Shown in pieces: positions 8,340 to 43,852 of a DNA stretch of 64,000 nucleotides. The notes under the pieces were generated by a model. That model was not told where the DNA came from. It ran no database searches and saw only the letters and a program-made list of their open reading frames with translations. Source of the DNA: an uncultured bacterium (lineage in GTDB: Bacteria; JAGRBM01; JAHCIT01); assembly GCA_964565925.1 (NCBI GenBank), contig CAZMGV010000005.1, positions 64,100 to 128,099 on the forward strand. Reading direction: 5' to 3'. A program made the position numbers and the translations under genes. The stretch's first letter is position 1. Each line of letters opens with the position of its first letter.

Positions 8340-8405
8340 GCATCCTGCCTTCAGGGTCCCTATGAGTGGATATTATAAACATATCCTATGGTATTTCCGC
8401 AATGA

Positions 8406-9173
8406 TTACACAGAGATGGGGCCAACCCGTTTGCCATCCAGAAACTGGCGCACGAGGGGGTCCGTTGAATGCCTCAGATCGTCAATCGTGCCTTCCAGAT
8501 GAATCCGGCCCTTATAAAGCATGGCGATCCGGCTTGCGATCTTATAAGTCGCCTCCACATCGTGGCTGATGACGACATTTGTGGTCTTATATTCAGACTG
8601 CAACTCGTTAATGAGGGCCATGATCACGTCGGTCATGACGGGATCCAGCCCGGAACTGGGTTCATCCAGAAGCAGAATCTGGGGCCGCAGTGCCATTGCC
8701 CTGGCCAGGCCGGCACGCTTGCGCATGCCGCCGGACAGTTCCGACGGTGCCTTGTGCCCATGCTGGCCGAGTCCCACCTGTGTCAACACTTCGTTTACAC
8801 GCGAGGAAATTTCGTCCTTGTGCATCGTTGTGTGTTCGCGCAGCGGCAGGGCCACATTCTCGAATACGGACATGGAGTCGAGCAGGGCGCCGTCCTGAAA
8901 CAGGAAGCCGAATTTCAGCCGGACTTTATACAGGGGGTCACCCTCGAGCCGGGTGACGTCTTCTCCGTCGACAAAGACCCGTCCTTCGTCCGGCTTCAGA
9001 AGCCCGATCATGTGCTTGAGCGTGACACTCTTGCCCGCGCCGGACAGCCCCATGATCACAGTTGTTTCCTGGGCCGGGATATCCAGCGTCATATGATCGA
9101 GGACGGTCTGCTGGCCGAACCTTTTGACCAGTCCTTCCATGCGGATCATGGGTTGCAGGGCGGCCGGGGTCAT
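8406..9173 (-). CDS. mlaF: ABC transporter ATP-binding protein, MlaF type
   Basis: Walker A is GLSGAGKS, the ABC signature is LSGGMRKRAGLARA, and Walker B is LLLDEP. I placed the start at MTPAALQPMIRMEGL; that start codon overlaps the mlaE stop by 4 bp (ATGA). The 410-aa track ORF has a spurious N-terminal extension. Confidence 0.85.
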   Translation of the reverse strand: MTPAALQPMIRMEGLVKRFGQQTVLDHMTLDIPAQETTVIMGLSGAGKSVTLKHMIGLLKPDEGRVFVDGEDVTRLEGDPLYKVRLKFGFLFQDGALLDSMSVFENVALPLREHTTMHKDEISSRVNEVLTQVGLGQHGHKAPSELSGGMRKRAGLARAMALRPQILLLDEPSSGLDPVMTDVIMALINELQSEYKTTNVVISHDVEATYKIASRIAMLYKGRIHLEGTIDDLRHSTDPLVRQFLDGKRVGPISV

Positions 9174-11100: not shown

Positions 11101-11263
11101 AAGATTGCAATAGAATACCACCGGACAGAGGGCGAGTGGTGTACCGAAATCATCCGGACATAGCCGGCGCGCGAGGCTAAATAAGAACCGATTTCAGCAA
11201 CCCGCCTTTGGTTCCATATGGCCATAGAACAGCTAGAATGATCACTGATCCGTCGGAAAGAGA

Positions 11264-24541: not shown

Positions 24542-24701
24542 AGGGTCACCAGTATAGTCCGGTTACGGAAAAGGTGTGCAAATTCGGGGGGTTCGGAAAA
24601 ATCGGATTCCTTTGTAACCTTCCGGGCTCCCGGGACGTGATAGTTACAGAGGCCGCCTTGGCTTGGGTAAGGTGGGGTGGTTGAGGCTAAAGGAGACGGT
24701 C

Positions 24702-26015: not shown

Positions 26016-26953
26016 GCCTTGCCGTCGGTAGCTACCGGAACGTTCAGAGCAGGTAGGTCGGACCACAGGCAGGTCCACAGAGCCGACGGTTTCACAGGAT
26101 CGTCGTCATCGGTCACCAGCCACAAGCGGGTTCCCGGGCCCTCTGACTCTGCCCATAACCCTTCGACCTTGAGCGGCGGCGATAGCCAGTGCAGTGCGGT
26201 GACGGCGTGGCCATCGAGAATGCCGATGGCGGAACCGCTCACGGCACCGTCCTCATAGGTGCTGGCTGAATTTTCCGCGACGGCGGTAAAGAGCAGACGT
26301 CCTCCCGGCAGGGCGAATCCGTCGGTGAACGACAGCGGGCCTTTATCCTCCGGCAGCTTCACCGCTTCCGACTGGACGAGGCAGTTTCCGGTCACTCGTC
26401 CGCTCGCAGCCTCCGATCTGAACCGGTTCAGGTCCAGATGCAGCAGGCCGTTTTGGCCGGCCCGGCCGTTACCGCGCTGAAACAGGATCAACCGGTCGTC
26501 ATGGACGGCCGCCCCTTCGATATTGAGTTCGGGGAACTGCCGGGCTGCCGAGATATAGAGTTCTGCCAGCTCCACCTGATGGATTCCGGTTGGTTCGCCG
26601 CTGGCATCGAGCCGGACCAGCGCTGCGCGGGTGCGGCTCGGGGTGGAGCCGGACGGGATAGCCAGCAGCTCCGAATTGCCGTTCGGCAAGGGCAGGAGTG
26701 CGAGCGCTTCCAGGTCGGGCTTGCGGCGTTTGCGGTCCCGCTTGTCCAGCGGCAGTTCGCCCTGAAGGATACGGAACCCCCGGCCCGGAGCGGAGCCTTC
26801 ACGGGGAAACACCCCCAGATGCAGCTCGTCGTCGGCCACGACGTATATGTGCGACCGGGTCATGGCGAGTCCGCTCGCGGCCGAAATAAACGGACGCCGC
26901 CCGGCCGACATCGGCTGGGTCAGATCGAGCAGACGAAGGCGGACAGGGTTCAT
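25796..26953 (-). CDS. Hypothetical protein (possible beta-propeller). It is third in the adenylate-cyclase operon. The 3-prime boundary is uncertain.
   Basis: The start overlaps the cyclase stop (ATGA at 26950-26953). The N-terminal two-thirds look protein-like (SHIYVVADDELHLGVF, LLAIPSGST, AAVHDDRLILFQRGNG). The last ~70 aa are low-complexity and overlap the convergent oxidoreductase by ~220 bp, so the true stop may be earlier or there may be a frameshift. Confidence 0.35.
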   Translation of the reverse strand: MNPVRLRLLDLTQPMSAGRRPFISAASGLAMTRSHIYVVADDELHLGVFPREGSAPGRGFRILQGELPLDKRDRKRRKPDLEALALLPLPNGNSELLAIPSGSTPSRTRAALVRLDASGEPTGIHQVELAELYISAARQFPELNIEGAAVHDDRLILFQRGNGRAGQNGLLHLDLNRFRSEAASGRVTGNCLVQSEAVKLPEDKGPLSFTDGFALPGGRLLFTAVAENSASTYEDGAVSGSAIGILDGHAVTALHWLSPPLKVEGLWAESEGPGTRLWLVTDDDDPVKPSALWTCLWSDLPALNVPVATDGKAQAAFRDTTTLPSARTAAWRPLANAASAIIASVPAQSPATNRLSIPGTAGPGLPVTPPSSDVTSRWVTTSFGR

Positions 26954-28650
26954 GACGCGGGCAGGGTGACGCCTTCGATAAACGCCACAACCTCTCTGGG
27001 TATTGAGGTGAACCGGATTTCGTGAAGACCACTGCTATTTCCGTCGGATACCGGCATGACCTTGGCGTAGATGTCTAGCCGGTCCAGATGACTGCTGACT
27101 TCATGCAGGTTCAGCTTGAGGTTGCTAAGTGTTTCCATTTTTGAGTCTGAACGTACCGTCACAGCCTGCGCGGAGATGGCAATGATCTCAAGATGAAACC
27201 GGTCGTCGTTAACCGTCTTCCCGTCTACCAGCGAGGCCACAAAGCGTAGCGGACGGACTGGCGGACGTGGTGTGGTGGTGTGACGGTTCAGGACACAGCT
27301 GAATTCGCCGCCCACGCCGCCGATCTCATAGATGGCGAGCGGGTGGCTGGCTCCTTTGGGCATGATTTCCATCCGGCCATCGATTCTGATCAGTCCCTTA
27401 GATTCATCAATTACAGACTGGGAAGCCAGAATCTGCCCGCCCACCGTATAGGATTCGATCCGGCTTGCCATATTCACGCCGCTACCGACGACTGTATATT
27501 TGCTCCGGCGGCTGGATCCGATATTGCCTACCACGACTTCTGCGTCGTTTATTCCAATACCCATCTCCAATGCGGGAAGCCCGTTCGCCTCGTTCCGCTG
27601 GTTCACAGCCGCCATGGCATTCTGCATTTCAACGGCGCAGGCGGTGGCCCTGAGCGCCCGGTCGGGCATCTCATGGGGCGCTCCGAAGATGACGAGCAGG
27701 GCGTCACCGATGATTTCGTTTACAGTTCCGTGATGCCTGAAGACGACTTCCACCATAATTTCATAATAGTCATTCAGCATACGGACGAAGGTTTCGGCGG
27801 GAATCCGTTCCGCAAGTGCGGTGAATCCGCGCAGGTCAGTCATCAGGATGCTCACCCGCCGGCGATGCCCGCCCATTTCAAGGGCGGCCGGGTTTTCGAT
27901 CAGCGCGTGCATGACTTCGGGAGCCAGATACCGTCCGAACATCTTCTTCAGGAATCCGGAGAGTTCGGTTACCTGTTCCTCGCGTTCCTTCCAGCGGGCG
28001 AAAATATAGGAACTCACCAGGATAATGGCAGCGGAGAGTGTCACCGGGACCAGGAAGATGACCACCGTGCCGGCTGGTGGAATGAGAAGGTGTCCGTCCT
28101 CAAATGGTGCACGCCGCAGCCAGGGCGCATAGGGAATCCATCCGGCAATCTGCGCCACGGTGGTGCCTGTCAGGATGATCAGGGCAGTGAGGCCGCTCAG
28201 GAGCACCGGTCGTAAGCCGAACATGAGGAGGCTGATTGAGAGGCCTCCCAGGGCGACGACCCAGACAGGTGTAGTGATCGTGCCGGTGAAATAGATGACG
28301 AGCCCCGTATGAACCGCCGTCCCTTGTAGAAACAGGTGGAGCACTAACGGGTTTTCCGGGTCCCGCCTGCGAAGCAGAAGCCCGGCCACAATGACCGTCG
28401 CCATGAAAATACTGGTGATCGCATAAAACGGTTTAAGAATCTGCTCAGCGAATTCCCAGTTTACGAGGTCGCTGAAATAGGTGGCTTCGCTTCCCTTCCA
28501 CACGATGAGCCAGCCGGCCACAACCCACGGAAATGCGATGCTTGAGCAGAGTACGCACCGGTCCACCAGCGGCCAGTCAAGCGGGTTAAAGAGCCATGAT
28601 TTGCGGCCCGCTGCCATGCCCGGCTGAACTGGATGGATGGAAGCCGCCAC
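26950..28650 (-). CDS. Membrane-anchored class III adenylate/guanylate cyclase (6 TM + CHD catalytic domain + C-terminal domain of unknown function)
   Basis: ~6 N-terminal TM helices. The cyclase homology domain is VSILMTDLRGFTALAE...GTVNEIIGDALLVIFGAP...VGIGINDAEVVVGNIGSSRRSKYTVVGSGVNMASRIES. A ~150-aa C-terminal extension follows. Confidence 0.8.
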   Translation of the reverse strand: MAASIHPVQPGMAAGRKSWLFNPLDWPLVDRCVLCSSIAFPWVVAGWLIVWKGSEATYFSDLVNWEFAEQILKPFYAITSIFMATVIVAGLLLRRRDPENPLVLHLFLQGTAVHTGLVIYFTGTITTPVWVVALGGLSISLLMFGLRPVLLSGLTALIILTGTTVAQIAGWIPYAPWLRRAPFEDGHLLIPPAGTVVIFLVPVTLSAAIILVSSYIFARWKEREEQVTELSGFLKKMFGRYLAPEVMHALIENPAALEMGGHRRRVSILMTDLRGFTALAERIPAETFVRMLNDYYEIMVEVVFRHHGTVNEIIGDALLVIFGAPHEMPDRALRATACAVEMQNAMAAVNQRNEANGLPALEMGIGINDAEVVVGNIGSSRRSKYTVVGSGVNMASRIESYTVGGQILASQSVIDESKGLIRIDGRMEIMPKGASHPLAIYEIGGVGGEFSCVLNRHTTTPRPPVRPLRFVASLVDGKTVNDDRFHLEIIAISAQAVTVRSDSKMETLSNLKLNLHEVSSHLDRLDIYAKVMPVSDGNSSGLHEIRFTSIPREVVAFIEGVTLPAS

Positions 28651-28661
28651 CGTTATCCTGC

Positions 28662-30455
28662 TTACGGTTTCGCGATCTGGACGTATTCGGGGTGCTTCTT
28701 GAGAATCTCGGCAAACACCGGAGCGAACACCGGCATGGCGACCTCGCTGGCGGATTTTTCCGGAACCACCATCTTGCAGACGTCGATCACGATCCCGATC
28801 GCCCTCAGAAACATCAGATTGTCCTGCGGCGTCTTGAAGGTTTTCACCTGCTTCAGCGCCTCGTCCATCGCGGAGAAGAGCTGTTTCATGTCTCCCTCCT
28901 TGCGGATGTCGTGATCAAAAATGGCACTTCGCATGGCCGGATCGGCAAACATCTTGCCGGCAAACCCTTCCAGGAACTCCCGGTCCGGTTCCCCGACGGC
29001 GCCTTTTTCGATCAGCCCGTCCACATAGAGACGCGGATTGTTGAAGAAGCCGCCGAAGATCTCTTTCATCAGGCCGTTACGCACGTTATCGGGGAGTTTC
29101 TTCACCATCCCGAAGTCGAGCATGGCGAGCCCGCCGGCCGGCGTGCAGAACACGTTGGCCGGGTGCGGATCGGCGTGAAAGAACCCGCCGAAGAATGCCT
29201 GCTGAAGGAACGACCGCATGTAGGTTTGCATCAGTTTCACGCGGTCCACGTTCCAGGCCTTGAGCTGGTCGAGGTTGTCGACGTTCGTTCCCTCGATAAA
29301 CTCCAGCGTCAGTACGCGGCGTGTGGTGTATCGCCAGTGGACCTTGGGGACTTTGACCCCGAACGGCGCCAGTTCCTTTTCCATCTGTTCGGTGGCGCGG
29401 CCTTCACGGGTCATATCCAGTTCATGCCGGAGCGGTTCTTCGTATTCCTTGTAAATCTGCATGAGGTCCACGCGTTTGACGATCTTGGAGAACCCCTTGA
29501 TGAGCAGACGGGTCAGCCAGAGATCGATGGCGACGCTCTGTTCGAGTCCCGGGTGCTGCACCTTCACGACGACCTTTTCGCCGGTGGGGAGTTTGGCCAC
29601 ATGAACCTGCCCCATGGAGGCGGCGGCGATCGGGGATTTCTCGAAGTCGGCGAACAGCTCCAGCGGCCCCACGCCGAACTCGCTCTGGATGAGTCCAGCC
29701 ACCAGCGAGTAGTCGGTCGCGGGTACGCGGTCCCGCATTGCCTTGAACTCCTCGATGTACTCTGGAGGGAGCAGGTGCATTTGCATGCTCGCCACCTGAC
29801 CGGCCTTGATATTGGCGCCCTTGAGACGGAATGCCGTCTCCTTGAACCGGATCGCGTTCTCCCGGTGGATGCGCGACATCTCCTCGGGCGTCTGCGGCCA
29901 GCGGAGCAGTGTCCGGCGAACCCATACCCAGAGGTAGGACAGCAGCAGCCGAGTCTGCATCCAGGCGAGGCTCGACAGGTGCTTGATCGCTCCCGTCCGG
30001 TCCTGAATCTCCAGCGCGCGGGCGAACTTGCGGTCAGACTCCGAGAGGCGGTTGGAGAGCGCCTGCAGGAAGGACCAGAGCACCTTCCGTCCGATGACCG
30101 GTTCCCGTTCGATCAGCTCCAGAAACCGGTCGCGGGGAATAAACAGGCACTGGGTCTCTCCTTCCGCACGGACCGAGGCTGAAGTGGGCCGGTCCGTCAC
30201 CAGGCTCATCTCGCCGAAATGGTCGCCTGCGAAGAGCTCGTTGATCCGCTGTTGTTTTTCCCCGCGAACGCTCTTGAAGACGTGAACCTTCCCGGTGTTC
30301 ACGATAAACAGTCCGGGACCGTGGATCCCTTCGTCGATAATCTTTTCATTGTCCCTGTAACGCCGCTCCTCGCAGACCGAGGCGACCAGCCGGGTTTCTT
30401 CGGATGTTAACGATTTGAAAACGGGCAGCCCACGCATGGCTTCGGCACGGTCCAT
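28662..30455 (-). CDS. Fusion of a cyclic-nucleotide-binding (cNMP/CAP-effector) domain and a UbiB/ABC1-family atypical protein kinase
   Basis: The N-terminal cNMP-binding domain has the phosphate-binding cassette FGEMSLVTDRPTSASVRA. The ABC1/UbiB kinase core follows: AAASMGQVHVAKLPTGEKVVVKVQHPG...HADPHPANVF...AMLDFGMV. An 11-bp gap separates it from the cyclase gene downstream on the same strand. Confidence 0.75.
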   Translation of the reverse strand: MDRAEAMRGLPVFKSLTSEETRLVASVCEERRYRDNEKIIDEGIHGPGLFIVNTGKVHVFKSVRGEKQQRINELFAGDHFGEMSLVTDRPTSASVRAEGETQCLFIPRDRFLELIEREPVIGRKVLWSFLQALSNRLSESDRKFARALEIQDRTGAIKHLSSLAWMQTRLLLSYLWVWVRRTLLRWPQTPEEMSRIHRENAIRFKETAFRLKGANIKAGQVASMQMHLLPPEYIEEFKAMRDRVPATDYSLVAGLIQSEFGVGPLELFADFEKSPIAAASMGQVHVAKLPTGEKVVVKVQHPGLEQSVAIDLWLTRLLIKGFSKIVKRVDLMQIYKEYEEPLRHELDMTREGRATEQMEKELAPFGVKVPKVHWRYTTRRVLTLEFIEGTNVDNLDQLKAWNVDRVKLMQTYMRSFLQQAFFGGFFHADPHPANVFCTPAGGLAMLDFGMVKKLPDNVRNGLMKEIFGGFFNNPRLYVDGLIEKGAVGEPDREFLEGFAGKMFADPAMRSAIFDHDIRKEGDMKQLFSAMDEALKQVKTFKTPQDNLMFLRAIGIVIDVCKMVVPEKSASEVAMPVFAPVFAEILKKHPEYVQIAKP

Positions 30456-33016: not shown

Positions 33017-33092
33017 GCCGTGGTAGCTCAGTTGGTAGAGCAGTGGATTGAAAATCCACGTGTCGGCGGTTCGAATCCGCCCCTCGGCACCA
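33017..33092 (+). tRNA. tRNA-Phe (anticodon GAA)
   Basis: Manual cloverleaf: acceptor GCCGTGG/CCTCGGC (one U-U mismatch), D-arm GCTC-AGTTGGTA-GAGC, anticodon stem GTGGA/TCCAC with loop TTGAAAA (GAA), T-arm GGCGG-TTCGAAT-CCGCC, discriminator A, CCA encoded. It closely resembles canonical bacterial tRNA-Phe. Confidence 0.8.
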
Positions 33093-33265: not shown

Positions 33266-33751
33266 ATGGCCAATCCACCCGCACACGAATTTCGATGCAA
33301 GCTGACCTGGACCGGTGCGCCCGGAACGGCTGGCGCGGCGCCGTTCACCTATGACGGGTTTTCCCGGGATCTGAAGATCGAGATCGACGGAAAGCCGCCG
33401 GTGCTCGCAAGCGCAGCACCCGGTTACAAGGGCGATCCGTCCCGGCACAACCCGGAAGACCTGCTGATCACGTCGCTCGCGGCCTGCCACTGCCTCACCT
33501 ATCTGGCGATCTGCTCGCTGTCGAAGGTGAAAATCGTCGGGTATGAGGACGAGGCCACCGGGACCCTGGAGAAGGCCGGCGACGTGATGAAGTTCACCGG
33601 TGCGACGCTCCGGCCCAAGGTGACGCTGGCGAGCGGCGACGACGAGGTCCGCGCCTTGTCGCTGCATGATAAAGCACACAATCAGTGCTTTATCGTGAAC
33701 TCCGTGAACTTCCCCGTAAAAGTGGAGCCGAAGATCGTCATCTCCGGGTGA
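33266..33751 (+). CDS. OsmC/Ohr-family peroxiredoxin-like protein
   Basis: Both conserved Cys are present in an OsmC-like context (LLITSLAACHCLTY...AHNQCFIVNSV). Confidence 0.75.
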   Translation: MANPPAHEFRCKLTWTGAPGTAGAAPFTYDGFSRDLKIEIDGKPPVLASAAPGYKGDPSRHNPEDLLITSLAACHCLTYLAICSLSKVKIVGYEDEATGTLEKAGDVMKFTGATLRPKVTLASGDDEVRALSLHDKAHNQCFIVNSVNFPVKVEPKIVISG

Positions 33752-33761
33752 GGGTGACCGG

Positions 33762-34172
33762 ATGGGACGGGATCAAAGCGGACGGGGGATCGCCGGAATC
33801 GGCGTCGATCTGGTCGATGCCGGCCGGATACGCGAATCGATCCTGAAACGCCCGGCCTTCCTGACCACGGTTTTCACGCCGCCGGAACTCCGCCGGGTTC
33901 AGAAAAGACCCGAACGGGTCCGGTTCGAAAAACTGGCTGCCTGCTTCGCCGCCAAAGAGGCGTTCTACAAGGCGCTCGGCAGGAACCAGCACGGAATCGG
34001 CTGGAAGGATATCGCGCTTGCCGGGAAACCCGGAAAGCCGCCAGAATTGGTAATTTCAGCTAAGGCCCGGCGCATCCTTGAGAAACTGCAGATCGGTCGC
34101 GTCCATGTGTCTATAACCGACGAAGGGGGCTTTGCGGCCGCTTTCGTGATCCTTGAGCGGACGGGCGGCTGA
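33762..34172 (+). CDS. acpS: Holo-[acyl-carrier-protein] synthase (4'-phosphopantetheinyl transferase, AcpS type)
   Basis: GIGVDLVDAGRI...FTPPELRR...LAACFAAKEAFYKALG...HVSITDEGGFAAAFVILE is the typical ~125-aa AcpS. Confidence 0.75.
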   Translation: MGRDQSGRGIAGIGVDLVDAGRIRESILKRPAFLTTVFTPPELRRVQKRPERVRFEKLAACFAAKEAFYKALGRNQHGIGWKDIALAGKPGKPPELVISAKARRILEKLQIGRVHVSITDEGGFAAAFVILERTGG

Positions 34173-34283
34173 TTCCAGTCGGCGGTTAAATAGGCCGGGT
34201 ATCTGATCTGGGTCATGTAATGCCCTTTCCGGTGGCGGTACGCTTTTCCTGATAGATTTGAGGGAGGGGGCCTTCGGCTCATT

Positions 34284-35321
34284 ATGCTGCGCAAACCGAT
34301 CCGGACAACAGCTCGAAGCGGCAGCCGAAAGCGCCGGACCCCTCCGCCGGTCACGCGTGAGCACGGCCTCTTGCTTGTTCACGACATGCTGCTGATCCGC
34401 CGGTTCGAAGAGAAGGCCGACGAGCTGTACAGTCTGGGCAAGATCCGCGGCTTCCTCCATCTTTATATCGGCGAAGAGGCGGTGTCCGCCGGCGCCATGC
34501 GGGCGTTCACGGCGGACGATTCGATCGTCGCCACCTACCGCGAGCACGGACATGCGATCATGCGCGGGATGCCGCCGGGGTCGGTCATGGCGGAGATGTA
34601 CGGCAAGGCGAACGGGTGCAGCCGGGGGCGCGGCGGGTCGATGCACCTCTTCGATGCCGGACGCAAGTTCTACGGCGGCCATGCCATTGTCGGCGCCGGT
34701 ATCCCGTTCGCGGTCGGCGTGGCGCTGGGCGACAAAATGTCCGGCCGTCCGCATGTGACCGCCTGCTTCTTCGGCGACGGGGCGGTGGACGAGGGCGAGT
34801 TCCACGAGTCGATGAACATGGCGGCGCTCTGGAAGCTGCCTATCCTCTTTATCTGCGAGAATAATCTTTACGCGATGGGCACGGCGCTTGAGCGCCACGA
34901 GTCGGTCCACGACATCACCACCCACGCCCGGTCCTACGGGATTCACGCCGATAAAGTGGACGGGATGGACGTGCTGGCGGTCGAAGCCGCCGTCCGACAT
35001 GCGGCCGGCGCCGTGCGCAAAACCGGCGCCCCGAGGTTCCTCGAGATTATGACTTACCGGTTCCGGGGCCATTCGATGGCCGATCCGGTTCTCTACCGCA
35101 GCAAGGAGGAGGTCGCCGAGTGGCAGACCCGCGACCCGGTCTCCTCATTCATGCTGAAAATGCGCGGGTGGGGGCTGCTGACGGACGCCGACGTGGTGGA
35201 ACTGGAAAAATCGGTTGCCGCCGAGATCAGCCAGGCAATCGACTTCGCCGAAAAGGGCGAGTGGGAACCGGTGGAGGACCTCGCCCGGGATGTTTATACG
35301 CCGGCGGGGGTGCGGCCATGA
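34284..35321 (+). CDS. pdhA: 2-oxoacid dehydrogenase E1 component alpha subunit (pyruvate/acetoin dehydrogenase type, TPP-binding)
   Basis: YREHGH, the GDG(X)nN TPP motif ([39 protein letters not shown]), and the phospho-loop region are present. Confidence 0.85.
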
Positions 35322-36298
35322 AGCTCACTTACCGCGAAGCGGTCCGCGACGGCATGCGCCGGGCGATGCAGAACGATCCGAGGGTGTTCCTCATGGGCGA
35401 GGACGTGGGCCGCTACGGCGGTGCCTTCGCCGTGAGCAAGGGGTTGCTGGAAGAGTTCGGCCCGGAGCGCGTGCGCGATACGCCGCTCTCGGAGTCGACC
35501 TTCTCCGGTGCCGGGATCGGCGCGGCGGTGGCGGGGATGCGGCCGATCGTCGAGGTGATGACGGTCAACTTCAGCATGCTGGCGCTGGATCAGTTCGTGA
35601 ACTCGGCGGCGGCGCTCAGGCACATGTCCGGCGGGCAGATCAGCGTGCCGCTCGTGGTCCGGATGGCGACGGGCGGGGGCCGTCAGCTCGCTGCGCAGCA
35701 CTCTCATAGTTTCGAGGGCTGGTACGCCCATGTGCCCGGGATCAGGGTGCTGGCACCCGCCACGGTCAATGACGCGCGCGGGATGGTGCTCGCCGCCATC
35801 GAAGACCCCGATCCGGTATTCATCTTCGAGCACGCAACACTTTATCCGGTCGAAGGCGAAGTCGACGATCCATTCAAGCCGGTGGATATTTCCCGGTCCG
35901 TAATCCGCCGGCCGGGAAGCCATGTGACGCTGATGGCCTACGGCGGCTCGCTCGGGAAAACGCTTCAGGCCGCCACTGAACTGGCGGCCGAAGGGATCGA
36001 GGCCGAGGTGATCGACCTCAGGGTGCTGAGGCCTATCGACGACGAAACGATCCTGGAATCGGTCCGGCGTACGCACCGGGCGGTCGTTGTGGACGAGATG
36101 TGGCGGACGGGAAGTTTCGCGGGCGAACTGAGCGCCCGGATCATGGAAGGTGCCTTCTATGACCTCGACGCGCCGGTGGCCCGCGTTTGCAGTGCCGAAG
36201 TCCCGATGCCCTATGCGAAACAGATGGAAAACGCCGCGCTGCCGCAGGCGGCCGATATCGTGAAAGCCGTACGGGGGTTGTTCGGACGCCATGGCTGA
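35318..36298 (+). CDS. pdhB: 2-oxoacid dehydrogenase E1 component beta subunit
   Basis: Starts [37 protein letters not shown], in an ATGA overlap with the pdhA stop, and carries the transketolase-like pyrimidine-binding and C-terminal domains. The 392-aa track ORF is N-terminally over-extended. Confidence 0.85.
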
Positions 36299-37547
36299 TT
36301 TCGTCATGCCGAGTCTCGGCGCCGACATGGGCGAGGGCAAGCTCATCGCCTGGCGCAAGAAGGTGGGCGACGCCGTTCACCGCGGCGAGATCATCGCCGA
36401 AGTCGAGACCGACAAGGCCGCTGTTGACGTGGAGTGCCATCTGGACGGGGTGATCGAGAAGTTTCTCGTCGAACCGGGCCAGAAGGTCCCGATCGGAACT
36501 CCGCTCGCCGTCATCCGCACCGGCAAGGAGGGCGAAGCGCCGCCTCCGGGCGTACCTCCACCGTCCAAAACTGCCGAAGTCACTGTAGCGCCGAGGGCGG
36601 TTGCGCCGGTGGCCGCTCCGCCCAGAGCAGCGATCCCGGTTGCCGCCCGTCCGGGTGCGGTCCGCACAGCTCCCGCAGAGGGCACACGGATCCGGATCTC
36701 TCCCTATGCAGCGCGTCTTGCGCTGGAACTGTCGACCGAGATCAAGGGGCTTACAGGCAGCGGACCTGACGGGGCGATTTCGTCGCAGGATGTGCTTGCG
36801 GCTGCAGAGGCGAAAAAGGCAGTCGTGCCGACGGTGTCTCCGGCAACTGCCGTGCCTGTACCGGCCGAGGAAGACGCTCCGCAGGCACGGATGCGCCGCG
36901 CGATTGCCGCTTCCATGGGGCGGTCGAAGCGCGAAATTCCGCACTACTATCTCGTGCATACGGTAAGCCTCGAAAAAACTCTTGTGTGGATGGCCGCCGA
37001 GAACACGAAACTTCCGGTGGAGAAGCGGCTCATCACGGCCGTCTTGCTGATCAAGGCGACGGCGCTCGCCCTGAAAGAGGTTCCGGAACTGAACGCCCTG
37101 TGGGAAAACGGCCGGCCGGTCACCAAAGAGCGGATCAACGTGGGTGCCGCCATCTCGCTTCGGGGCGGGGGGCTGATCGCGCCGGCGCTTCACGATACGG
37201 ATAAAGCCGAACTGGGCGATCTCATGGTGCGGTTCCGGGATCTCGTGAAGCGGGGCCGCGCCGGAAAACTCAAGAGTTCGGAGATGACCGACCCGACCGT
37301 TACGGTGACCAGTCTCGGGGACCAGGGCGTCGACGGCCTGATCGGTGTGATCTACCCGCCGCAGGTGGCCATCGTCGGATTCGGAACCCCGGCGGAGCGG
37401 CCCTGGGTCGTCGACGGAAAAGTCGCTCCGCAGCGGACGATCCTCATGACGCTCTCGGGCGATCACCGCGTGACGGACGGTCACCGGGGCGCGCAACTGC
37501 TTGGCGCCATCGAACGGCTGCTTCAGGAACCGGAGAAACTCAGATGA
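36291..37547 (+). CDS. Dihydrolipoamide acyltransferase E2 component (lipoyl domain + E3-binding domain + catalytic domain)
   Basis: The lipoyl-lysine motif is [13 protein letters not shown], the peripheral subunit-binding domain is [33 protein letters not shown], and the catalytic motif is DHRVTDG. Confidence 0.85.
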
Positions 37548-37798
37548 CTACGGACGAGATCAGGAAAACGGTTTTGAAGTCCCTCGGTGACGTGGCCCCG
37601 GACGCGGACCTGGGTTCGCTCAAACCCGACAAGGATATCCGCGAAGAGCTGGACATCGATTCGATGGATTTCCTGAACTTCATGGTGGCCCTGAAAGAGG
37701 CGCTCGGCGTCGAGGTGCCGGAGGCCGACTACGACAAGGTCGGATCGATCAACGCCTGCGTGGACTATCTCGCCAAACGGCTCGCCGGGGAGGGGTAA
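37544..37798 (+). CDS. Stand-alone acyl carrier protein-like protein (phosphopantetheine attachment site DIDSMDF)
   Basis: 84-aa acidic four-helix-type sequence with [21 protein letters not shown] around the conserved Ser. The start overlaps the E2 stop (ATGA). Confidence 0.6.
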
Positions 37799-37802
37799 GC
37801 GC

Positions 37803-39587
37803 ATGATCGAGGGCTACCAGGCTATCCTCAAATCCGGTTCCGACCGCGCCGGCGCAAATATCAAGGATTATGCCGACGCACGCCGGACTTTTACCTGGGA
37901 TGAGGCGAAATCCTGGGTGACGGGGCTTCCGGGCGGCAAGGGGCTGAATATCGCCTATGAAGCGGTGGACCGCCATGCGACGGGTGAGAGAGCGGGCCGG
38001 GTGGCGATCCGCTGGCTCGGCAAGCACGGCGGTTCGAAAGACATAACCTACTCGGAACTCTCCAGGCTCACGAACCGGTTTGCCGGTGCGCTGGGGGCTC
38101 TCGGCGTCCAGAAGGGCGACCGGGTGTGCGTGCTGCTCGGACGGGTGCCCGAGCTCTACGTCGCCGCGCTCGGGACGCTCAAGCACCGGGCCGTCTTCTG
38201 TCCGATGTTTTCCGCCTTCGGACCAGAGCCGATCCGGACCCGTCTCGAAATCAGCGAGGCGGCCGCGCTCGTTACGAGCGAAAAGCTGTACCGCCAGAAG
38301 GTGGCCCAGCTCCGCGAGAAACTCCCGAAACTCAAATACGTCATCCTCGTGAACGAGGAAGGCGGAGAGGCTGGCGATCCAACGCCGTCCGGCCCCGGGA
38401 TTGTCGGTTTTAACGACCTGATGGCGAAAGGGTCCGACCGTTACGAGATCGGCCCGACCGATCCGGAAGACCGGGCCATCCTGCATTTCACGAGCGGCAC
38501 CACCGGCACGCCCAAGGGTGCGATTCACGCGCATCAGGCGGTGGTCGTTCACCAGATGACCGGCAGGTTCGCCCTCGATCTGCACCCTGATGACATCTTC
38601 TGGTGCACGGCCGATCCGGGCTGGGTGACGGGGACCTCGTACGGGATCATCGCGCCGCTCACGCTCGGAGTCACCAATATCATCGACGAGGCGGATTTCT
38701 CCGCCGAGCGGTGGTACGGAATCCTGCAGGACCAGAAGGTCACGGTCTGGTACACGGCGCCCACCGCCATCCGTATGCTGATGAAGGCGGGCGAGGAGCC
38801 CGTGAAGAAGTTCAATCTCTCGTCGGTGCGGTTCATGGGAAGCGTGGGCGAGCCGCTCAATCCCGAGGCGGTCGTCTGGAGCCACCGCGTGCTCGGGCGG
38901 CCGTTCCACGACAACTGGTGGCAGACCGAAACGGGCGGCATCATGGTCGCCAACTACGCCTGCATGGAGATACGGCCCGGGTCCATGGGCCGACCGCTGC
39001 CGGGGATCGAGGCCGCCGTCGTGAAGAAACGGGAAGACGGGCACCTGGACGTGGTGACCCAGCCGGGGGTGCAGGGCGAACTGGCACTCAGGCCCGGCTG
39101 GCCGTCGATGTTCCGCGGATACCTTAACAACGATGAGCGGTACAAGAAGTCGTTCGTCGACGGCTGGTACCTCTCAGGTGATCTCGCCACCATCGATGCC
39201 GACGGATATTTCTGGTTCGTCGGCCGCGCCGACGACGTGATAAAGACGGCCGGGCACCTGATCGGTCCGTTCGAAGTGGAAAGCATCCTGATGCAGCACG
39301 AAGCGGTCGCCGAAGCGGGCGTGATCGGCAAACCCGATCCGGTCGCCATGGAAGTGATCAAGGCGTTCGTCACGCTTAAAAAAGGCTTCACGGCGAGCGA
39401 TGAACTCAAGCGTGACCTCATGGGCTTCGCCCGCAAGCGGCTGGGCGCCGCCGTGGCGCCGCGCGAGATCGAGATCCGCGACTGGCTGCCCAAGACCCGC
39501 AGCGGCAAGATCATGCGCCGGCTGCTCAAGGCCCAGGAACTGGGCCTCCCGCTCGGAGACACCTCGACGCTTGAAGAGCAGAGCTGA
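37803..39587 (+). CDS. AMP-forming acetyl-CoA-synthetase-family ligase (Acs/AcsA-like)
   Basis: Adenylate-forming motifs [12 protein letters not shown] (A3), WWQTETGG (Acs-characteristic), [38 protein letters not shown] (A8) and GKIMRR (A10 Lys). It starts 5 bp after the ACP gene. Confidence 0.75.
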
Positions 39588-39864
39588 CGTCCGGAATCGG
39601 GAATCACCTGCTTTGTTTCGGATCGACCCTAAAGGGCGGTAATCGTAATTGTGCCTCAATTGTGCCTGAACCACCCGAAACCATCGGAAACTACCGGTCA
39701 CCATTCTTTTCTGGGATTGAGGCTTGCCGTTCCGTACAACCAATATCGTCTTTATGCGTTCCGGCTCCCTGCGGATGTCCCGGGCACTGTTCAATTTCAC
39801 TTCTCCAAAAGCATCGGGGCCGGTCTTGCGACCGGCCCCGGGGAGGAGGAGTAGGGAGGAGAGA

Positions 39865-40476
39865 TCAGTTCAGTTCGTGGCTCACCGGGACCCCGGCGGA
39901 GGCGATCCGCTGTTCGGAGGTGTTGCGGTTACTGCCCGGGGTCAGGAACTCCGGGTTCACGAAGAGGCGGGCCACCGGCATCCGGGTGAGCGTGCCCTTC
40001 GGAGTGAGCGCCGCGGTGAAGGGGCCGGATTCGGTCACATGGTGATCCAGCCAGATCAGGTGGAGGGCTTCCAGCCGGGCCACCGCATCCATCACTTCGG
40101 TGCGGGTCAGTTTGCTGTCGCGGGCGAATTCGCGCAGGCCGGCCTGGCCGCGCCGGTCGAGCACCGCCAGCAGCTTCACGTCATTGCGCGTGATCCTGGC
40201 CCCGACCTGTGCCGAAAGTTCCTCGGCCGCCTGGTCCAGTTTCGCATATTCTTCCTGCTTCGCTTTCGGGGTGGCGAGCCCGTCGAAAAGTCCCGTGTGG
40301 GCGGCCGAGTCGGCAGCCACCGGCATGGCGACGGTTGATGCAGCCAGTGTTACCGGATGAACGACGAGGGCTCCGACGAGCATCGTCTCTCCTCCGGCGC
40401 AGGCCTGCAGCATCAGGCAGCTGGCGGCGATGGCGGCTAAGGGTATCGGGAGCTTTATGTTCTGGTGGTTCTTCAT
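39865..40476 (-). CDS. Hypothetical lipoprotein with a C-terminal winged-helix-like segment
   Basis: 203-aa ORF with a signal peptide and lipobox-like LQAC. The ELSAQ...LREFARDSKLTRTEVMDAVARLEALHLI segment resembles a MarR/HTH-like helix. I recognise no family. Confidence 0.35.
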   Translation of the reverse strand: MKNHQNIKLPIPLAAIAASCLMLQACAGGETMLVGALVVHPVTLAASTVAMPVAADSAAHTGLFDGLATPKAKQEEYAKLDQAAEELSAQVGARITRNDVKLLAVLDRRGQAGLREFARDSKLTRTEVMDAVARLEALHLIWLDHHVTESGPFTAALTPKGTLTRMPVARLFVNPEFLTPGSNRNTSEQRIASAGVPVSHELN

Positions 40477-40732
40477 GGTCCTATCCTCCTGGTGACTGGC
40501 GGTTTCCTTGGCCGCCGTGTCGTAACTGGAGGTCTTATTACAAGCCCCGTGCCACGGAGCAGGGCCACTTGAAAATCAGCGAATCGGGTGTTTTTGACGG
40601 AAATCCCGCTGAAAATGTGACTTTGAAGCGGTGGCCTGGGGAGAAGCGGAGCTTCCCACCGGTTTCCGGTGAGTTCTCGTGGTCAGGGGGGACCCGGCAG
40701 AGTTCGCCGGTGACTCATGGATCTTCAGGAGT

Positions 40733-41152
40733 TCAAGCGGTTCTGAGCTGGGGGATGCGGCGGGCGGGAATGCCACCAGGAGCTATACAGCGAGTCGCTT
40801 CGGCGATACGCAGGGCCACATCCGCCGGAGAAGCAGTCTTGTGGCTGGCAAAAGCAATCTTCAGGTGGGCGTTTGTCTTATGAATGGTGGCGGGGTCGTC
40901 CCAGAACGGAAGCAGGAGACCGGCCGGCGACGTCACGCCGGATTTGCGGATCGCCTGGAGCCAGCCCAACCCGTTTGCGCCGGGCAACTGGGTGTCGAGA
41001 AGGATCAGGTCGAATTCGACCTTCTGGAGTGAGCTCTCGGCCGCGCCGGCATTGGCGACGGGGACCACCAGGGCGCCCCGTGCCTTCAGGATCGGCGCCA
41101 GGCGGCGCATGAAGAAGTGGTCGTCTCCGGCCAGCAGCAGTTTAGAGGTCAT
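40733..41152 (-). CDS. Single-domain response regulator (CheY-like receiver)
   Basis: LLLAGDDHFFMRRL...DLILLDTQLPGANG... has the receiver layout, but the conserved T/S and K are atypical (LLPFW). Confidence 0.6.
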   Translation of the reverse strand: MTSKLLLAGDDHFFMRRLAPILKARGALVVPVANAGAAESSLQKVEFDLILLDTQLPGANGLGWLQAIRKSGVTSPAGLLLPFWDDPATIHKTNAHLKIAFASHKTASPADVALRIAEATRCIAPGGIPARRIPQLRTA

Positions 41153-41165
41153 GGTCGTCTCTCCC

Positions 41166-41627
41166 TCAACTCCGTGCGGCGGGTGCCCGCAGCCAGTGTA
41201 CCGCCGCTTCCAGGAACTGCTCCCGGTGAAAAGGCAGCGTGAGAATGCTCTCCATCCGTTCCCGGATCTCCGGAGGCGGCTCCGGCAGTTCGCGGCGGGT
41301 GATCCCGATCGCAGGAACCCTGTTGCGACTGTTCAGCTGTGCGAACAGGCCGCCCGCCTGATTGCCGGCCATGGCGCCGGTCAGTTCCGGCCCGAATGCC
41401 AGATCCAGAACAATGAGATCCGGCCGGCAGTTGCGGATGATCCGGTCGAACATGTGCGCATCGCTCAGGGACACAATGTCGCAGTCAGTGGCTTCCTTCA
41501 GGATATCGCCCAGCACATCGCATCCGTCGGGTTTGTGCAGGACCACGACCAGCTTGGCCGGAGCCATGGCTTTCAGCGTGTTCCGCATGAGGGGTTCTCC
41601 CGCAATTTCCTGTATCCGGATACTCAT
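41166..41627 (-). CDS. Receiver-like (possibly degenerate) single-domain protein
   Basis: KLVVVLHKPDGCDVLGDILKE...DLIVLDLAFGPELTG...AIGITRR shows a receiver-like alternation but lacks the N-terminal DD pair. Confidence 0.45.
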   Translation of the reverse strand: MSIRIQEIAGEPLMRNTLKAMAPAKLVVVLHKPDGCDVLGDILKEATDCDIVSLSDAHMFDRIIRNCRPDLIVLDLAFGPELTGAMAGNQAGGLFAQLNSRNRVPAIGITRRELPEPPPEIRERMESILTLPFHREQFLEAAVHWLRAPAARS

Positions 41628-41628
41628 C

Positions 41629-42096
41629 TCAGCAGGCCACCTTGATGGGTTCGGCCAGGTTTTCGTTCAGAAGTTCGGGGAACTCGCCCATATCCGGGTC
41701 GAGCACTTCGCGCCGGGTCTTGGGCAGACATTCCGCGCGAAGGAGCTTGTTGTCGATCAGGTACATAAGGTCGTTCTTCGACATGTACAGGTCCACGCCG
41801 AAGTCGGCCGCATGGAAGGGGTCGGGCGACTCGGGATTGGCCGTGGCGACGATCGTGAACGGATTGTGATCCGCGCCGAACGGAGGCCGGAGCCGGCTGC
41901 ACAGTTCGATACCGGTCATTCTCGGCATGAACTCGTCGGCGATCACGAGGTCGGGGCGCAGCAGCGACGCAATCTTGATTGCGTCGTGGCCGTCTGTGGC
42001 CGTCCACACCTCGTAGCCCTCCCTCGAGAGCTGCTGGTCGATGATCTTCTGGAAAAACGGGTTGTCATCCGCGACTAATACTTTGAACTTTTTCAT
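41629..42096 (-). CDS. Single-domain response regulator (CheY-like receiver)
   Basis: MKKFKVLVADDNPFFQKII...DLVIADEFMPRMTGIELC...TIVATAN has the canonical DD, D, T and K positions. The start is at the internal Met of the 166-aa track ORF. Confidence 0.7.
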   Translation of the reverse strand: MKKFKVLVADDNPFFQKIIDQQLSREGYEVWTATDGHDAIKIASLLRPDLVIADEFMPRMTGIELCSRLRPPFGADHNPFTIVATANPESPDPFHAADFGVDLYMSKNDLMYLIDNKLLRAECLPKTRREVLDPDMGEFPELLNENLAEPIKVAC

Positions 42097-42298
42097 GGCT
42101 GCCTCCTGCTCACGGAAGCAGTAACGCAAAAGCAGTGCCGAAATGGCGCTGTCGTGAAAAATGCGAATTCGGCCCGAATATGGGCAAAAACAGGCTTTTT
42201 TTGTTGTTAAAAAGGCTCACCGGGGTGGTGATATTTGGAGGTGGCAGGGGTGTCCCCGGACTCCGGGGTAAAATCCGACCCGGGGTTTGGGGCCGTAT

Positions 42299-43738
42299 TC
42301 AGGACTCTTTCGGGGGGTCTTCGGAGTCTTCCGGGAGCGTGCTACCCGACTGGAATTTCTGGTACAGGCGGCGAAAATTGCTGCGGTCCATCCCGGCTAC
42401 CTCGGCCGCCTTGGTCATGCTGTTGCCTGTAAGCTTCATGACGTGTTCGATATACGCGAGCGTGATCCGGGCAAGGTGGCGGTCCTTCACGTCCTGGTAG
42501 GGACCGTCGAGGTTTTCCGCGGTGCCGGTGCCATTGCCGCCTGAACCGGAAGCCGGAACGCGAACGGTCCCCTGGAAATCGACGAGATTGCTCTTTGAAA
42601 GCACGACGGCCCGTTCGACCGCGTTCTTGAGTTCGCGGATATTGCCGGGCCAGCTGTGCGACAGCAGGAAGTTCAAGGCGTCGGGGCTGAACCCCTCCGC
42701 CCGTTTCTGGTACTTGCGGGCAAACTGGTTCAGGAATACATGGGCGATCAGCTCCACGTCGCCGGGTCTTGAACGCAAGGGCGGCACTTCGATGCGGATG
42801 ACGTTGAGCCGGTAGTAGAGGTCCTCCCTGAACCGCTTTTCCTTTACCTCCTTCTCGAGGTTCCGGTTCGTCGCGGAGATGATCCGTACATCTACCTTGC
42901 GGGTGTCGGAACTGCCGACCCGGCGGATCTCCCCTTCCTGGAGGGTGCGCAGCAGTTTGGCCTGCATTGGAAGCGGCAGTTCGCCCATTTCGTCCAGAAA
43001 CAGCGTACCGCCGTTCGCGGTTTCAAAGAGCCCGGCGCGGGCCCGGTCGGCGCCGGTGAACGAACCCTTCTCGTGGCCGAACAGTTCGGCTTCAAAGAGC
43101 GTTTCCGTGAAAGCCGAACAGTTGGCGACAACGAAGGGGGCGGATTTGCGGTTGGACCGGTCGTGCAGCGCACGGGCGATCAGTTCTTTCCCTGTGCCGC
43201 TCTCGCCCGTGACCAGGACCGGTACATCGGTGGGGCCGGCCACTTCGATCAGACTGCGGATTTCCTCGATGGCCGGGCTCTGTCCCAGCAGGATCGAGGC
43301 GACGGTCGAGCCGCCCCGCTCCAGCTCCACGGCCTTGCGCCGCAGATGAACGAGTTCGGCCGCCCGGTGCAGAACCATCAGAAGCCGCTCATTGTCGAAC
43401 GGTTTCATGATGTATTCGTAGGCACCCTGACGCACCGCCTTCACGGCTTCCGGTACGTCACCATGAGCCGTGATGAAGATCACTTCCGGATCACCGGGCA
43501 GGCGCCGGTAGTCGTTCAGGGCATCAAGACCCGTCCGCCCTGGCATGGAGACATCCGAAATAATCACATCCGTCTGAAGGTTCGCCAATCCCTGCAGGGC
43601 GTCGGCGACGGACGAGAACGTGTGTGTCTCGTAGCCGTTGGCATCCAGCACGCGCTTGTACAGGCCCAGAATCGCCTTCTCGTCGTCGATAAGCGCCACA
43701 ATTGTAGGGGAAGCGTTCTCCGGCACCTTCATCTCCAT
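42299..43738 (-). CDS. Sigma-54-dependent transcriptional response regulator (NtrC family: REC + AAA+ + Fis-type HTH)
   Basis: REC is IVALIDDEKAIL...DVIISDVSMPGRTG. The sigma54-interaction domain has GESGTGKELIARALH, GAFTGA and ESELFGHEKGSFTGA. The C-terminal HTH is YIEHVMKLTGNSMTKAAEVAGMDRSNFRRLYQKF. The start is at MEMKVPEN. Confidence 0.85.
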   Translation of the reverse strand: MEMKVPENASPTIVALIDDEKAILGLYKRVLDANGYETHTFSSVADALQGLANLQTDVIISDVSMPGRTGLDALNDYRRLPGDPEVIFITAHGDVPEAVKAVRQGAYEYIMKPFDNERLLMVLHRAAELVHLRRKAVELERGGSTVASILLGQSPAIEEIRSLIEVAGPTDVPVLVTGESGTGKELIARALHDRSNRKSAPFVVANCSAFTETLFEAELFGHEKGSFTGADRARAGLFETANGGTLFLDEMGELPLPMQAKLLRTLQEGEIRRVGSSDTRKVDVRIISATNRNLEKEVKEKRFREDLYYRLNVIRIEVPPLRSRPGDVELIAHVFLNQFARKYQKRAEGFSPDALNFLLSHSWPGNIRELKNAVERAVVLSKSNLVDFQGTVRVPASGSGGNGTGTAENLDGPYQDVKDRHLARITLAYIEHVMKLTGNSMTKAAEVAGMDRSNFRRLYQKFQSGSTLPEDSEDPPKES

Positions 43739-43852
43739 CAGAGGTTCAGTGATACGGACACATGCATACTCGGCAACAGCAGTATTCAGCGACCGCATGA
43801 TCTTAGCCAGTTAAATTCGGGAGTGGCGAGAAATCAGCTAAAAAATTGAATT

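Follow-up and report, generated by a model that had tools for sequence, protein, structure and literature searches.

A widespread five-gene operon joining PDH-type E1 and E2 genes, an AcsA-type ligase and a private acyl carrier protein

In a stretch of 64,000 nucleotides from an uncultured bacterium (GTDB lineage Bacteria; JAGRBM01; JAHCIT01; GenBank assembly GCA_964565925.1, contig CAZMGV010000005.1, forward strand, positions 64,100 to 128,099), referred to here as the window, genes for the E1 alpha, E1 beta and lipoyl-E2 components of a pyruvate dehydrogenase (PDH)-type complex are coupled to a small acyl carrier protein (ACP) and an acetate-activating ligase of the AcsA type, and are preceded by a gene for a holo-ACP synthase (AcpS). 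Judged by sequence comparison, the ligase, E1 alpha, E1 beta, E2 and the ACP constitute the conserved core of a widespread and horizontally mobile five-gene operon, for which full-text literature searches returned no published description. The reading that we favor, at a probability of roughly 0.45, is that the private ACP receives acetyl groups from E2, from the ligase or from both, in place of CoA or in addition to it. PDH and acetyl-CoA synthetase (Acs) are textbook CoA enzymes, and to our knowledge chemistry of the acetyl type on a protein-bound arm is so far known only from a few antibiotic clusters, namely those for quinocarcin (Qnc), naphthyridinomycin (Nap) and scleric acid (Scl), and by analogy from citrate lyase; if the reading is right, central acetyl-group chemistry would be able to run on such an arm. 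Pipeline labels such as acsA, pdhA and "acyl carrier protein (fatty acid biosynthesis)" hide the operon as a unit.

A Conserved and Mobile Five-Gene Core

The six genes on the forward strand at 33762-39587 were upheld by the listing of open reading frames (ORFs), by their translations and by Pfam and NCBIfam scans (Table 1). As read from the sequence, E1 alpha and E1 beta share an ATGA at 35318-35321, E2 starts inside E1 beta with an overlap of 8 nt, E2 and the ACP share a second ATGA at 37544-37547, and the ligase starts 4 nt past the ACP stop. An earlier note on this DNA, made from the sequence alone, had described the same cluster: its AcpS gene in front (TIGR00516 above cutoff), its E1 and E2 genes with both ATGA junctions, and its 84-aa ACP with a DSM site (PF00550, DIDSMD) overlapping the E2 stop were all recovered, with PDH as the type of a dehydrogenase that had been left between PDH and acetoin; the Acs-family ligase with its WWQTETGG motif was recovered as well, although the gap before it had been put at 5 bp. 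The layout is, as that note had remarked, unlike that of a canonical pdh or aco operon.

Table 1. Genes and other features of the operon locus and of related loci; positions refer to the window unless a locus is named.
Feature	Position	Strand	Evidence and remarks
OsmC-like thiol peroxidase gene	33266-33751	+	PF02566, 56.9 bits; 10 nt upstream of acpS
AcpS, holo-ACP synthase (phosphopantetheinyl transferase)	33762-34172	+	PF01648; TIGR00516
PDH-type E1 alpha (ThDP-binding)	34284-35321	+	TIGR03182
E1 beta	35318-36298	+	NF006667; PF02779, PF02780; real start is the ATG at 35318
Lipoyl-E2 dihydrolipoyl acyltransferase	36291-37547	+	PF00364, PF02817, PF00198
84-aa ACP	37544-37798	+	PF00550; DIDSMD; phosphopantetheine site Ser40
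AcsA-type acetate-activating adenylate-forming ligase	37803-39587	+	NF003313; NWWQTETGG
GC-rich hairpin, 11 pairs	39815-39840	- (as given by the scan)	between the ligase stop and a convergent gene at 39865-40476
Pyruvate-kinase-like gene in related loci	L040:6796-8718; L068:6451-8385; L085:2921-4864		Nitrospira lineage

Gene order was counted by searching all loci by tblastn with the proteins of the window. E2 lies directly upstream of the ACP in 67/70 informative loci, those with enough upstream DNA, hence the ACP is no chance ORF, and the order ligase-E1 alpha-E1 beta-E2-ACP is kept in 49/53, so that the conservation of gene order, which the earlier note had proposed as a check, was found. 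Among the 80 E2/ACP pairs measured, 66 share the 4-nt overlap of the E2 stop with the ACP start. Median identities to the window proteins (E1 beta 71%, ligase 66%, E1 alpha 63%, ACP 54%, E2 51%) are high for hosts so distant.

Cultured hosts carry the operon on plasmids and include Desulfotalea psychrophila LSv54, Cupriavidus sp. USMAHM13, Rhodococcus sp. DK17 (pDK1), Burkholderia sp. JP2-270, Methylocystis rosea, and Sinorhizobium fredii (CCBAU 45436, pSF45436d). Six regions from cultured hosts are annotated, and in each of them acsA shares 4 nt with pdhA, as does pdhA with pdhB; five of the six also have a 4-nt overlap between E2 and the ACP. The labels given there by PGAP are acsA, pdhA, alpha-ketoacid dehydrogenase beta, dihydrolipoamide acetyltransferase family and acyl carrier protein. 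The arrangement of the window, with AcpS first and the ligase behind the ACP, was found with long flanks only in one close relative (L003), and a short contig (L009) also has the ligase behind the ACP; wherever the ligase is displaced, that is in the window, L003 and L009, it has been relocated directly behind the ACP. The gene order, the acsA/pdhA overlaps and this relocation together make the ligase an integral member of the operon.

Some loci depart from the pattern. A 2.6-kb contig of a Burkholderiales metagenome-assembled genome (MAG) holds at 81-1943 the ligase, a 40-aa stub of E1 alpha and the ACP, with E1 alpha, E1 beta and E2 otherwise missing (L083), a deletion that may reflect either genuine decay or an error of assembly; E2 is frameshifted in L081, and only a remnant of E2 is left in L030.

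Neighbor clustering of the flanking ORFs of about 90 loci gave no sixth conserved gene, therefore the partners of the ACP must be sought among E1, E2 and the ligase. AcpS of the window scores 67.8 bits against TIGR00516 (cutoff 59.8) and 73.2 bits against TIGR00556 (cutoff 45.35), and among the related loci only L003 has an AcpS gene at the corresponding place, with 45% identity, hence AcpS is a lineage-specific addition outside the conserved core. The earlier note had joined a dedicated carrier, its phosphopantetheinyl transferase (PPTase) and a ligase to the 2-oxoacid dehydrogenase; the carrier and the ligase are conserved, while the PPTase is confined to these two loci. The OsmC-like gene, which in several phyla has counterparts beside the operon (8/90 loci, the window being the ninth), is likewise an accessory neighbor outside the core.

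The Private Acyl Carrier Protein

The ACP of the window matches PF00550 with 36.3 bits (cutoff 20.8), while all NCBIfam ACP models score below their cutoffs, TIGR00517 (AcpP) reaching 34.9 bits against 70.45, so that it is not AcpP and the grouping with AcpP that the earlier note had considered was not borne out. Its genomic neighbors are E2 and the ligase, and no fab genes. In an alignment of 20 diverse members, an 11-residue motif that includes the serine is invariant in all 20; the earlier note had let its idea depend on the conservation of this ORF and of its serine, and both are conserved. An AF2 model has the four-helix ACP fold (pLDDT 90.4), with a helix at 40-54 that begins at Ser40, the start of helix II. 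The invariance of the serine and the presence of AcpS in the lineage of the window imply that the holo form matters. Taken with the predicted fold, the invariant Ser40 and motif and the PPTase that this lineage has recruited indicate an ACP that is functional and specific.

A protein search returned 442 relatives of the ACP, and a scan with one genome per species placed it in at least 558 species genomes of more than 12 phyla. Host phyla were read from the 80 best of these genomes, all of them MAGs, which belong to Nitrospirota, Acidobacteriota, Planctomycetota, Chloroflexota, Methylomirabilota, Binatia, Gemmatimonadota, Actinomycetota, Proteobacteria, Myxococcota, Verrucomicrobiota, Desulfobacterota, and Bdellovibrionota.

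Cys72 in helix IV is also invariant in the family, according to the same alignment and the AF2 model. A redox-active ACP, in which Cys72 and the phosphopantetheine thiol would substitute for the dihydrolipoyl dehydrogenase (E3), was considered and set aside, because this cysteine lies in helix IV and aligns with a pocket residue, which from a manual alignment we take to be the buried Ala68 of Escherichia coli ACP.

The AcsA-Type Ligase

The ligase scores 914 bits against the acetate--CoA ligase equivalog NF003313 (cutoff 729), and its closest relative among solved structures is Bacillus subtilis AcsA (PDB 9g79; 594 bits). The 57 operon ligases were aligned with three solved Acs enzymes (9g79, 2p2f, and 8rpk). 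The residues equivalent to the acetate pocket of Salmonella enterica Acs (V310, T311, V386, and W414) are V/T/V/W in the window and are kept in 55-57 of the 57 operon ligases, the pocket tryptophan (W414 equivalent) in every one; a tryptophan of this type restricts Acs enzymes to acetate or propionate. As the acetate pocket is kept, the acyl substrate of the ligase should be acetate or a similarly small acid. The equivalents of the catalytic lysine K609 and of T416, E417, D500 and R515 are kept in 56-57/57, and the adenylation motifs are intact, as in AcsA of B. subtilis. The earlier note had also considered an acyl-ACP synthetase like AasS, which does not agree with a sequence of the B. subtilis AcsA type with its acetate pocket intact.

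In other positions the operon ligases differ from AcsA. All 57 have FTSGTTG for YTSGSTG in the P-loop, Ala for V274 and Asn for T412, which precedes WWQTE. The position of Arg526, presumably the Arg of the thioester-forming SGxR loop of S. enterica Acs and an Arg in 9g79, 2p2f and 8rpk, is occupied by Leu in the window and by Leu in 48 and Met in 9 of the 57. By these invariant P-loop, Asn and Leu/Met changes the operon ligases form a distinct subfamily at the level of sequence. No acuABC-type regulators were seen near the operon ligase.

Lipoylation normally begins from octanoyl-ACP, which raises the idea that the ACP and the ligase serve the lipoylation of the operon's own E2, the ligase loading octanoate onto the ACP; in favor of this, the operon is often plasmid-borne and has to work in new hosts. 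This scheme was set aside, since the pocket of the ligase is acetate-sized, with the limiting tryptophan in 57/57 ligases. No LipB, LipM or LipA gene recurs nearby in about 90 loci, and the sole cofactor gene, a lipoate-protein ligase in Desulfotalea, encodes an enzyme that needs no ACP, so that we regard cofactor assembly as barely credible.

E1, E2 and the Re-oxidation of the Lipoyl Arm

E1 alpha passes the PDH equivalog TIGR03182 (PDH_E1_alph_y; 443 bits, cutoff 393.85), and its best solved relative is human PDH E1 alpha with 257 bits, compared with about 130-145 bits for branched-chain E1 alpha; the GDG...NN motif for thiamine diphosphate (ThDP) is present in its translation. E1 beta scores 408 bits against NF006667 (cutoff 321). 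E2 consists of a lipoyl domain, an E3/E1-binding (peripheral-subunit-binding) domain and a catalytic domain, with the lipoyl-lysine motif TDKA and the catalytic DHRVTDG (DHRxxDG) in its translation. The best solved relatives of E2 are mammalian PDC E2 proteins (226 bits), yet it falls below every NCBIfam E2 equivalog cutoff, the best being TIGR01349 with 253 bits against 445.

That the locus might simply be acoABC, an outcome on which the earlier note would have given up its idea, was rejected, as E1 alpha passes the PDH equivalog and the AcoC model NF011457 gives 82.6 bits against 307, matching the lipoyl region only. AcoA/AcoB/AcoC(/AcoL) systems resemble the operon in having E1 alpha, E1 beta and a lipoyl-E2 together, sometimes without E3, and the acetoin utilisation genes of B. 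subtilis have an acs gene linked to them; Aco systems, however, are not known to include an ACP. Neither acoR, acoL nor acoX was seen in the window flanks or in the annotated cultured regions.

The absence of an E3 gene from the cluster, noticed earlier, extends to the whole window: tblastn with a bona fide dihydrolipoyl dehydrogenase from a related locus (L035) gave no match in the 64 kb, nine other neighboring window ORFs have no Pfam match to the E3 family, and the sole FAD enzyme near the operon (24663-26015) is a protein of the amine-oxidase type. Only 1 of the 90 loci has E3 in the operon, namely L035, a Dehalococcoidia MAG with the order ligase-E1 alpha-E1 beta-E2-ACP-E3, in which the E3 gene (7162-8565; TIGR01350, 509 bits) directly follows that of the ACP. 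On the large conjugative plasmid of D. psychrophila LSv54, a strict anaerobe (L089), a lipoate-protein ligase gene (10336-11346; TIGR00545, 379 bits) stands behind the ACP, so that this operon seems to bring its own lipoylation enzyme. As each of these two enzymes is encoded behind the ACP, the lipoyl and E3 chemistry of the system is real.

The main rival reading is conventional: a CoA-dependent PDH and an ordinary acetyl-CoA synthetase would both make acetyl-CoA, with E3 supplied in trans and the ACP as a structural, assembly or regulatory accessory of E2. It agrees with the PGAP gene names, with a ligase that exceeds the cutoff of the acetate--CoA ligase equivalog and in which the equivalents of R584 and K194 are retained, with the PDH-model matches of both E1 subunits, with the peripheral-subunit-binding domain of E2 and with the real E3 behind the ACP in L035; further, no catalytic domain of E2 or ligase type is fused to any of the 150 best ACP representatives. 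If the ACP were an accessory whose prosthetic group did not matter, the invariant serine and motif and the recruitment of AcpS would be left unexplained, as would a ligase that is locked in by 4-nt overlaps and carries invariant changes in the P-loop and thioester loop, and an E2 far below every E2 equivalog cutoff; we therefore consider this explanation unlikely on balance, though it is one to be taken seriously. Set against PDH complexes with a heterotetrameric E1 (mitochondrial, alphaproteobacterial, and Gram-positive), the operon is alike in its PDH-model E1, in its three-domain E2 with DHRxxDG and in having mammalian proteins as closest structures, whereas it differs in the rarity of E3, in an E2 below the cutoffs, in the ACP coupled to E2 and, in most members, in the ligase coupled to E1 alpha.

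Proposed Acetyl Transfer to the Acyl Carrier Protein

E2 and Acs-type ligases both perform phosphopantetheine-thioester chemistry, and since only E1, E2 and the ligase are co-conserved with the ACP, its acetylation by E2 and/or the ligase is the most economical reading. Pyruvate and acetate as substrates fit a PDH-type E1 alpha, the pyruvate-kinase-like and malic enzyme neighbors described below and the acetate pocket of the ligase. In the mechanism that we propose, AcpS would turn the ACP into its holo form, E1 would decarboxylate pyruvate and reductively acetylate the lipoyl arm of E2, and E2 would transfer this acetyl unit to the phosphopantetheinyl thiol of the ACP, which would replace CoA or act beside it, comparable to QncL with QncM. 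The AcsA-like ligase would interconvert acetyl-S-ACP with acetate and ATP, and the dihydrolipoyl arm would be re-oxidised by an E3 encoded elsewhere. If the ligase step ran toward acetate, the set would be self-sufficient, leading from pyruvate via acetyl-ACP to acetate, with ATP formed from AMP and PPi. The identities of the genes, their conservation and coupling, the intact catalytic motifs, the acetate-sized pocket and the stress-island context of the relatives are established; from them we infer the acetylation of the ACP, the enzymes that load and unload it and the direction of the flux.

A precedent for the central step comes from secondary metabolism, where QncN/L/M of quinocarcin biosynthesis, their naphthyridinomycin homologues and SclQ1-4 with the PPTase SclP of scleric acid biosynthesis use PDH-like E1/E2 proteins and an ACP to make glycolicacyl-S-ACP (PMC6335953). 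Compared here by their published description, these systems consist, like the operon, of a ThDP-binding alpha-like protein, a pyrimidine-binding/transketolase-C beta-like protein, a lipoyl/2-oxoacid-dehydrogenase acyltransferase and a small ACP, together with a PPTase in scl (PMC6335953), and they show that an E2-type acyltransferase can deliver a lipoyl-bound acyl group to an ACP. They lie within non-ribosomal peptide synthetase (NRPS) clusters, take ketose phosphates as substrate and have no adenylating ligase, whereas the operon combines a PDH-type E1 with an obligatory AcsA-type ligase, has no assembly-line genes near it and occurs in stress islands and on plasmids in more than 12 phyla. 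The match of E1 alpha to the PDH equivalog argues against the operon being nearer to QncN/L/M than to the PDH of primary metabolism. Relative to this precedent, the operon is set apart by the obligatory ligase, the PDH-type E1 and the very wide distribution outside secondary metabolism.

The earlier note had suggested the supply of starter units, and one may accordingly ask whether the operon provides acyl-ACP for specialised lipids, polyketides or other secondary metabolites, with the consumers encoded elsewhere. PPTase, E1, E2 and ACP do make up the layout of the glycolicacyl-ACP systems, and in a Lentisphaeria MAG (L027, 2717-4302) an ACP homologue of 49% identity, encoded without an E2, follows a beta-ketoacyl synthase-like gene, so that at this distance the ACP family also seems to have a context of the fatty-acid or polyketide type. 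However, no fatty acid synthase (FAS), polyketide synthase (PKS), NRPS or acyltransferase gene recurs beside the operon in about 90 loci, L027 being the sole ketosynthase case, and the scanned ORFs of the window, at about 24.6-32.9 kb and 39.9-48.5 kb, include no fab, PKS, NRPS or acyltransferase genes. The recurrent neighbors are stress and dormancy genes instead, and the operon moves on plasmids as a five-gene unit. Starter supply is thus quite improbable.

Outside secondary metabolism, citrate lyase and malonate decarboxylase are catabolic complexes with a private ACP subunit that is acetylated by a dedicated ATP-dependent ligase. The likeness to the operon, a protein-bound CoA-like arm in place of free CoA, is an analogy only, as the proteins are unrelated, the arm is 2'-(5''-phosphoribosyl)-3'-dephospho-CoA and the ligase CitC is not an ANL enzyme.

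Several points weigh against acetylation of the ACP. The case for it is built from sequence and gene context. The ligase is an acetyl-CoA synthetase by every sequence test applied; its equivalent of R584 is invariant and that of R194 is Lys, and as these residues of S. enterica Acs presumably contact CoA, the kept basic residues are compatible with CoA binding, although no proof of it. E2 has, as far as its sequence tells, no obvious loss of CoA use, and the CoA site of an E2 opens inside the E2 core, where the ACP would have to reach. A search with the ACP profile against 1.84 billion representatives returned stand-alone proteins of about 85 aa and one fusion to an OsmC-like domain, and none of the 150 best ACP representatives is fused to E2 or the ligase. 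The ACP also occurs off the operon, behind the ketosynthase of L027 and alone in a Chloroflexota MAG (L059, 9848-10261), where no E2 or ligase lies within 10 kb and the surroundings are an island of tandem universal stress protein (Usp), BON-domain, LonC-like and eRF1-like genes. The reading offers no reason why a private carrier should be preferred to CoA, and the direction that it gives to the ligase step is wholly inferred.

The single fusion bears on a further explanation, which would complement ACP acetylation: an OsmC-type thiol peroxidase could re-oxidise the dihydrolipoyl-E2, so that pyruvate oxidation drives the reduction of hydroperoxides. Ohr/OsmC peroxidases are reduced by lipoylated proteins, and Mycobacterium tuberculosis couples its PDH E2 (DlaT) to AhpD/AhpC. 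An OsmC-like gene stands in front of acpS in the window and near the operon in the eight further loci mentioned above, just downstream of the ACP in L013, L041 and L049, and the metagenomic protein P0154 (239 aa) joins an N-terminal operon-type ACP to an OsmC-like domain homologous to the OsmC-like protein of the window. P0154 may be a genuine fusion or the product of read-through between neighboring genes in the assembly of a metagenome, though, OsmC is present in only about 9 of 90 loci, the ACP and the ligase would be left unexplained, and the E3 of L035 speaks for normal re-oxidation in at least one lineage; redox coupling of this kind is therefore improbable.

Genomic Context and a Possible Role in Dormancy

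Neighbors were counted in 90 loci by clustering of the flanking ORFs and iterative searches. Tandem Usp genes are the most frequent (33/90), followed by Hsp20 and phosphoribosyltransferase-like genes (14/90 each), an NMD3-like zinc-ribbon (10/90), PolX (9/90), and LonC-like genes (6/90). On pDK1 of Rhodococcus sp. DK17 (L091, 13308-16741), the operon is surrounded by genes for Usp, a GAF-domain histidine kinase, a NarL-family response regulator, pfkB, ppsA and otsB, the kinase and regulator having, by their sequences, a DosS/DosR-like architecture; we take these surroundings to resemble the mycobacterial DosR regulon. The recurrence of Usp, Hsp20, phosphoribosyltransferase, PolX, OsmC and DosRS-like regulators gives the setting of the relatives what looks like a stress or dormancy context. 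In central metabolism, three Nitrospira-lineage loci (Table 1) have, inserted between E1 beta and E2, a gene for a pyruvate-kinase-like protein whose roughly 640 aa include a long N-terminal extension; a pyruvate-kinase-like gene lies near the operon in a fourth locus, and malic enzyme adjoins the operon in four loci.

With the mycobacterial DosR regulon and the low-oxygen-activated (lxa) locus of Burkholderia cenocepacia, many operon loci have tandem Usp, Hsp20, phosphoribosyltransferase, cation ATPase, Lon-like protease and pfkB genes in common, whereas the window carries none of those stress genes: no Usp, Hsp20 or phosphoribosyltransferase-type gene was found in it, and the OsmC-like gene is the only one of the stress type. 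The main text of the lxa paper names no pyruvate dehydrogenase, ACP or acs gene (PMC3721108).

The Usp, Hsp20 and DosRS-like neighbors suggest a role in survival under hypoxia or dormancy. ACP acetylation could then be taken further, to an ACP that acts as a second swinging arm, replaces CoA as the acceptor of E2 and, with the ligase running in reverse to make ATP and acetate, allows CoA-independent substrate-level phosphorylation under hypoxia or in dormancy; in this full form the proposal is doubtful. If true, it would describe a module that converts pyruvate to acetate, CO2 and ATP, is often plasmid-borne or placed in Usp/Hsp20/DosR-type islands and is spread over more than 12 phyla. How obligate aerobes make ATP under hypoxia or in dormancy is an open question on which the operon may bear, and the operon reaches abundant uncultured groups of soil and groundwater, namely Nitrospirota, Acidobacteriota, Methylomirabilota, Chloroflexota, and Planctomycetota. 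The existence of cultured, genetically tractable carriers (Rhodococcus sp. DK17, Cupriavidus, S. fredii, and M. rosea) makes the question directly testable.

Other Features of the Window

Around the operon, neither promoter and terminator scans nor a search for a sigma-54 promoter pattern yielded hits in excess of chance. The GC-rich hairpin behind the ligase (Table 1) is likely the end of the operon, a suggestion from its position only, as the scan was unenriched over shuffles. The flanks of the window encode signaling proteins, a molybdopterin oxidoreductase and tRNA-Phe. The tRNA-Phe gene (33017-33092) lies 170 nt upstream of the block of OsmC, AcpS and PDH genes, and the G+C content is 0.63-0.64 over 34001-42000, compared with 0.58-0.62 in the flanks; together, the higher G+C of the operon block and the nearby tRNA gene are a weak hint at an acquired island.

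Downstream of the operon, three genes for small receiver or receiver-like proteins in a row and then one for a sigma-54-type (NtrC-like) activator are encoded on the reverse strand at 40733-43798, and a TGGCAC-N5-TTG-like site with one mismatch is present at 40539-40554 (reverse strand), such sites being not above chance over the window. Upstream, on the reverse strand, a 385-aa protein with DUF6929 and DUF6910 (224 and 191 bits) is encoded at 25796-26953. Adjacent to it, at 26950-30455 on the same strand, genes for an adenylate/guanylate cyclase (566 aa) and for a fusion of a cyclic-nucleotide-binding domain with an ABC1 atypical kinase (597 aa) lie side by side and may form a cyclic nucleotide signaling pair.

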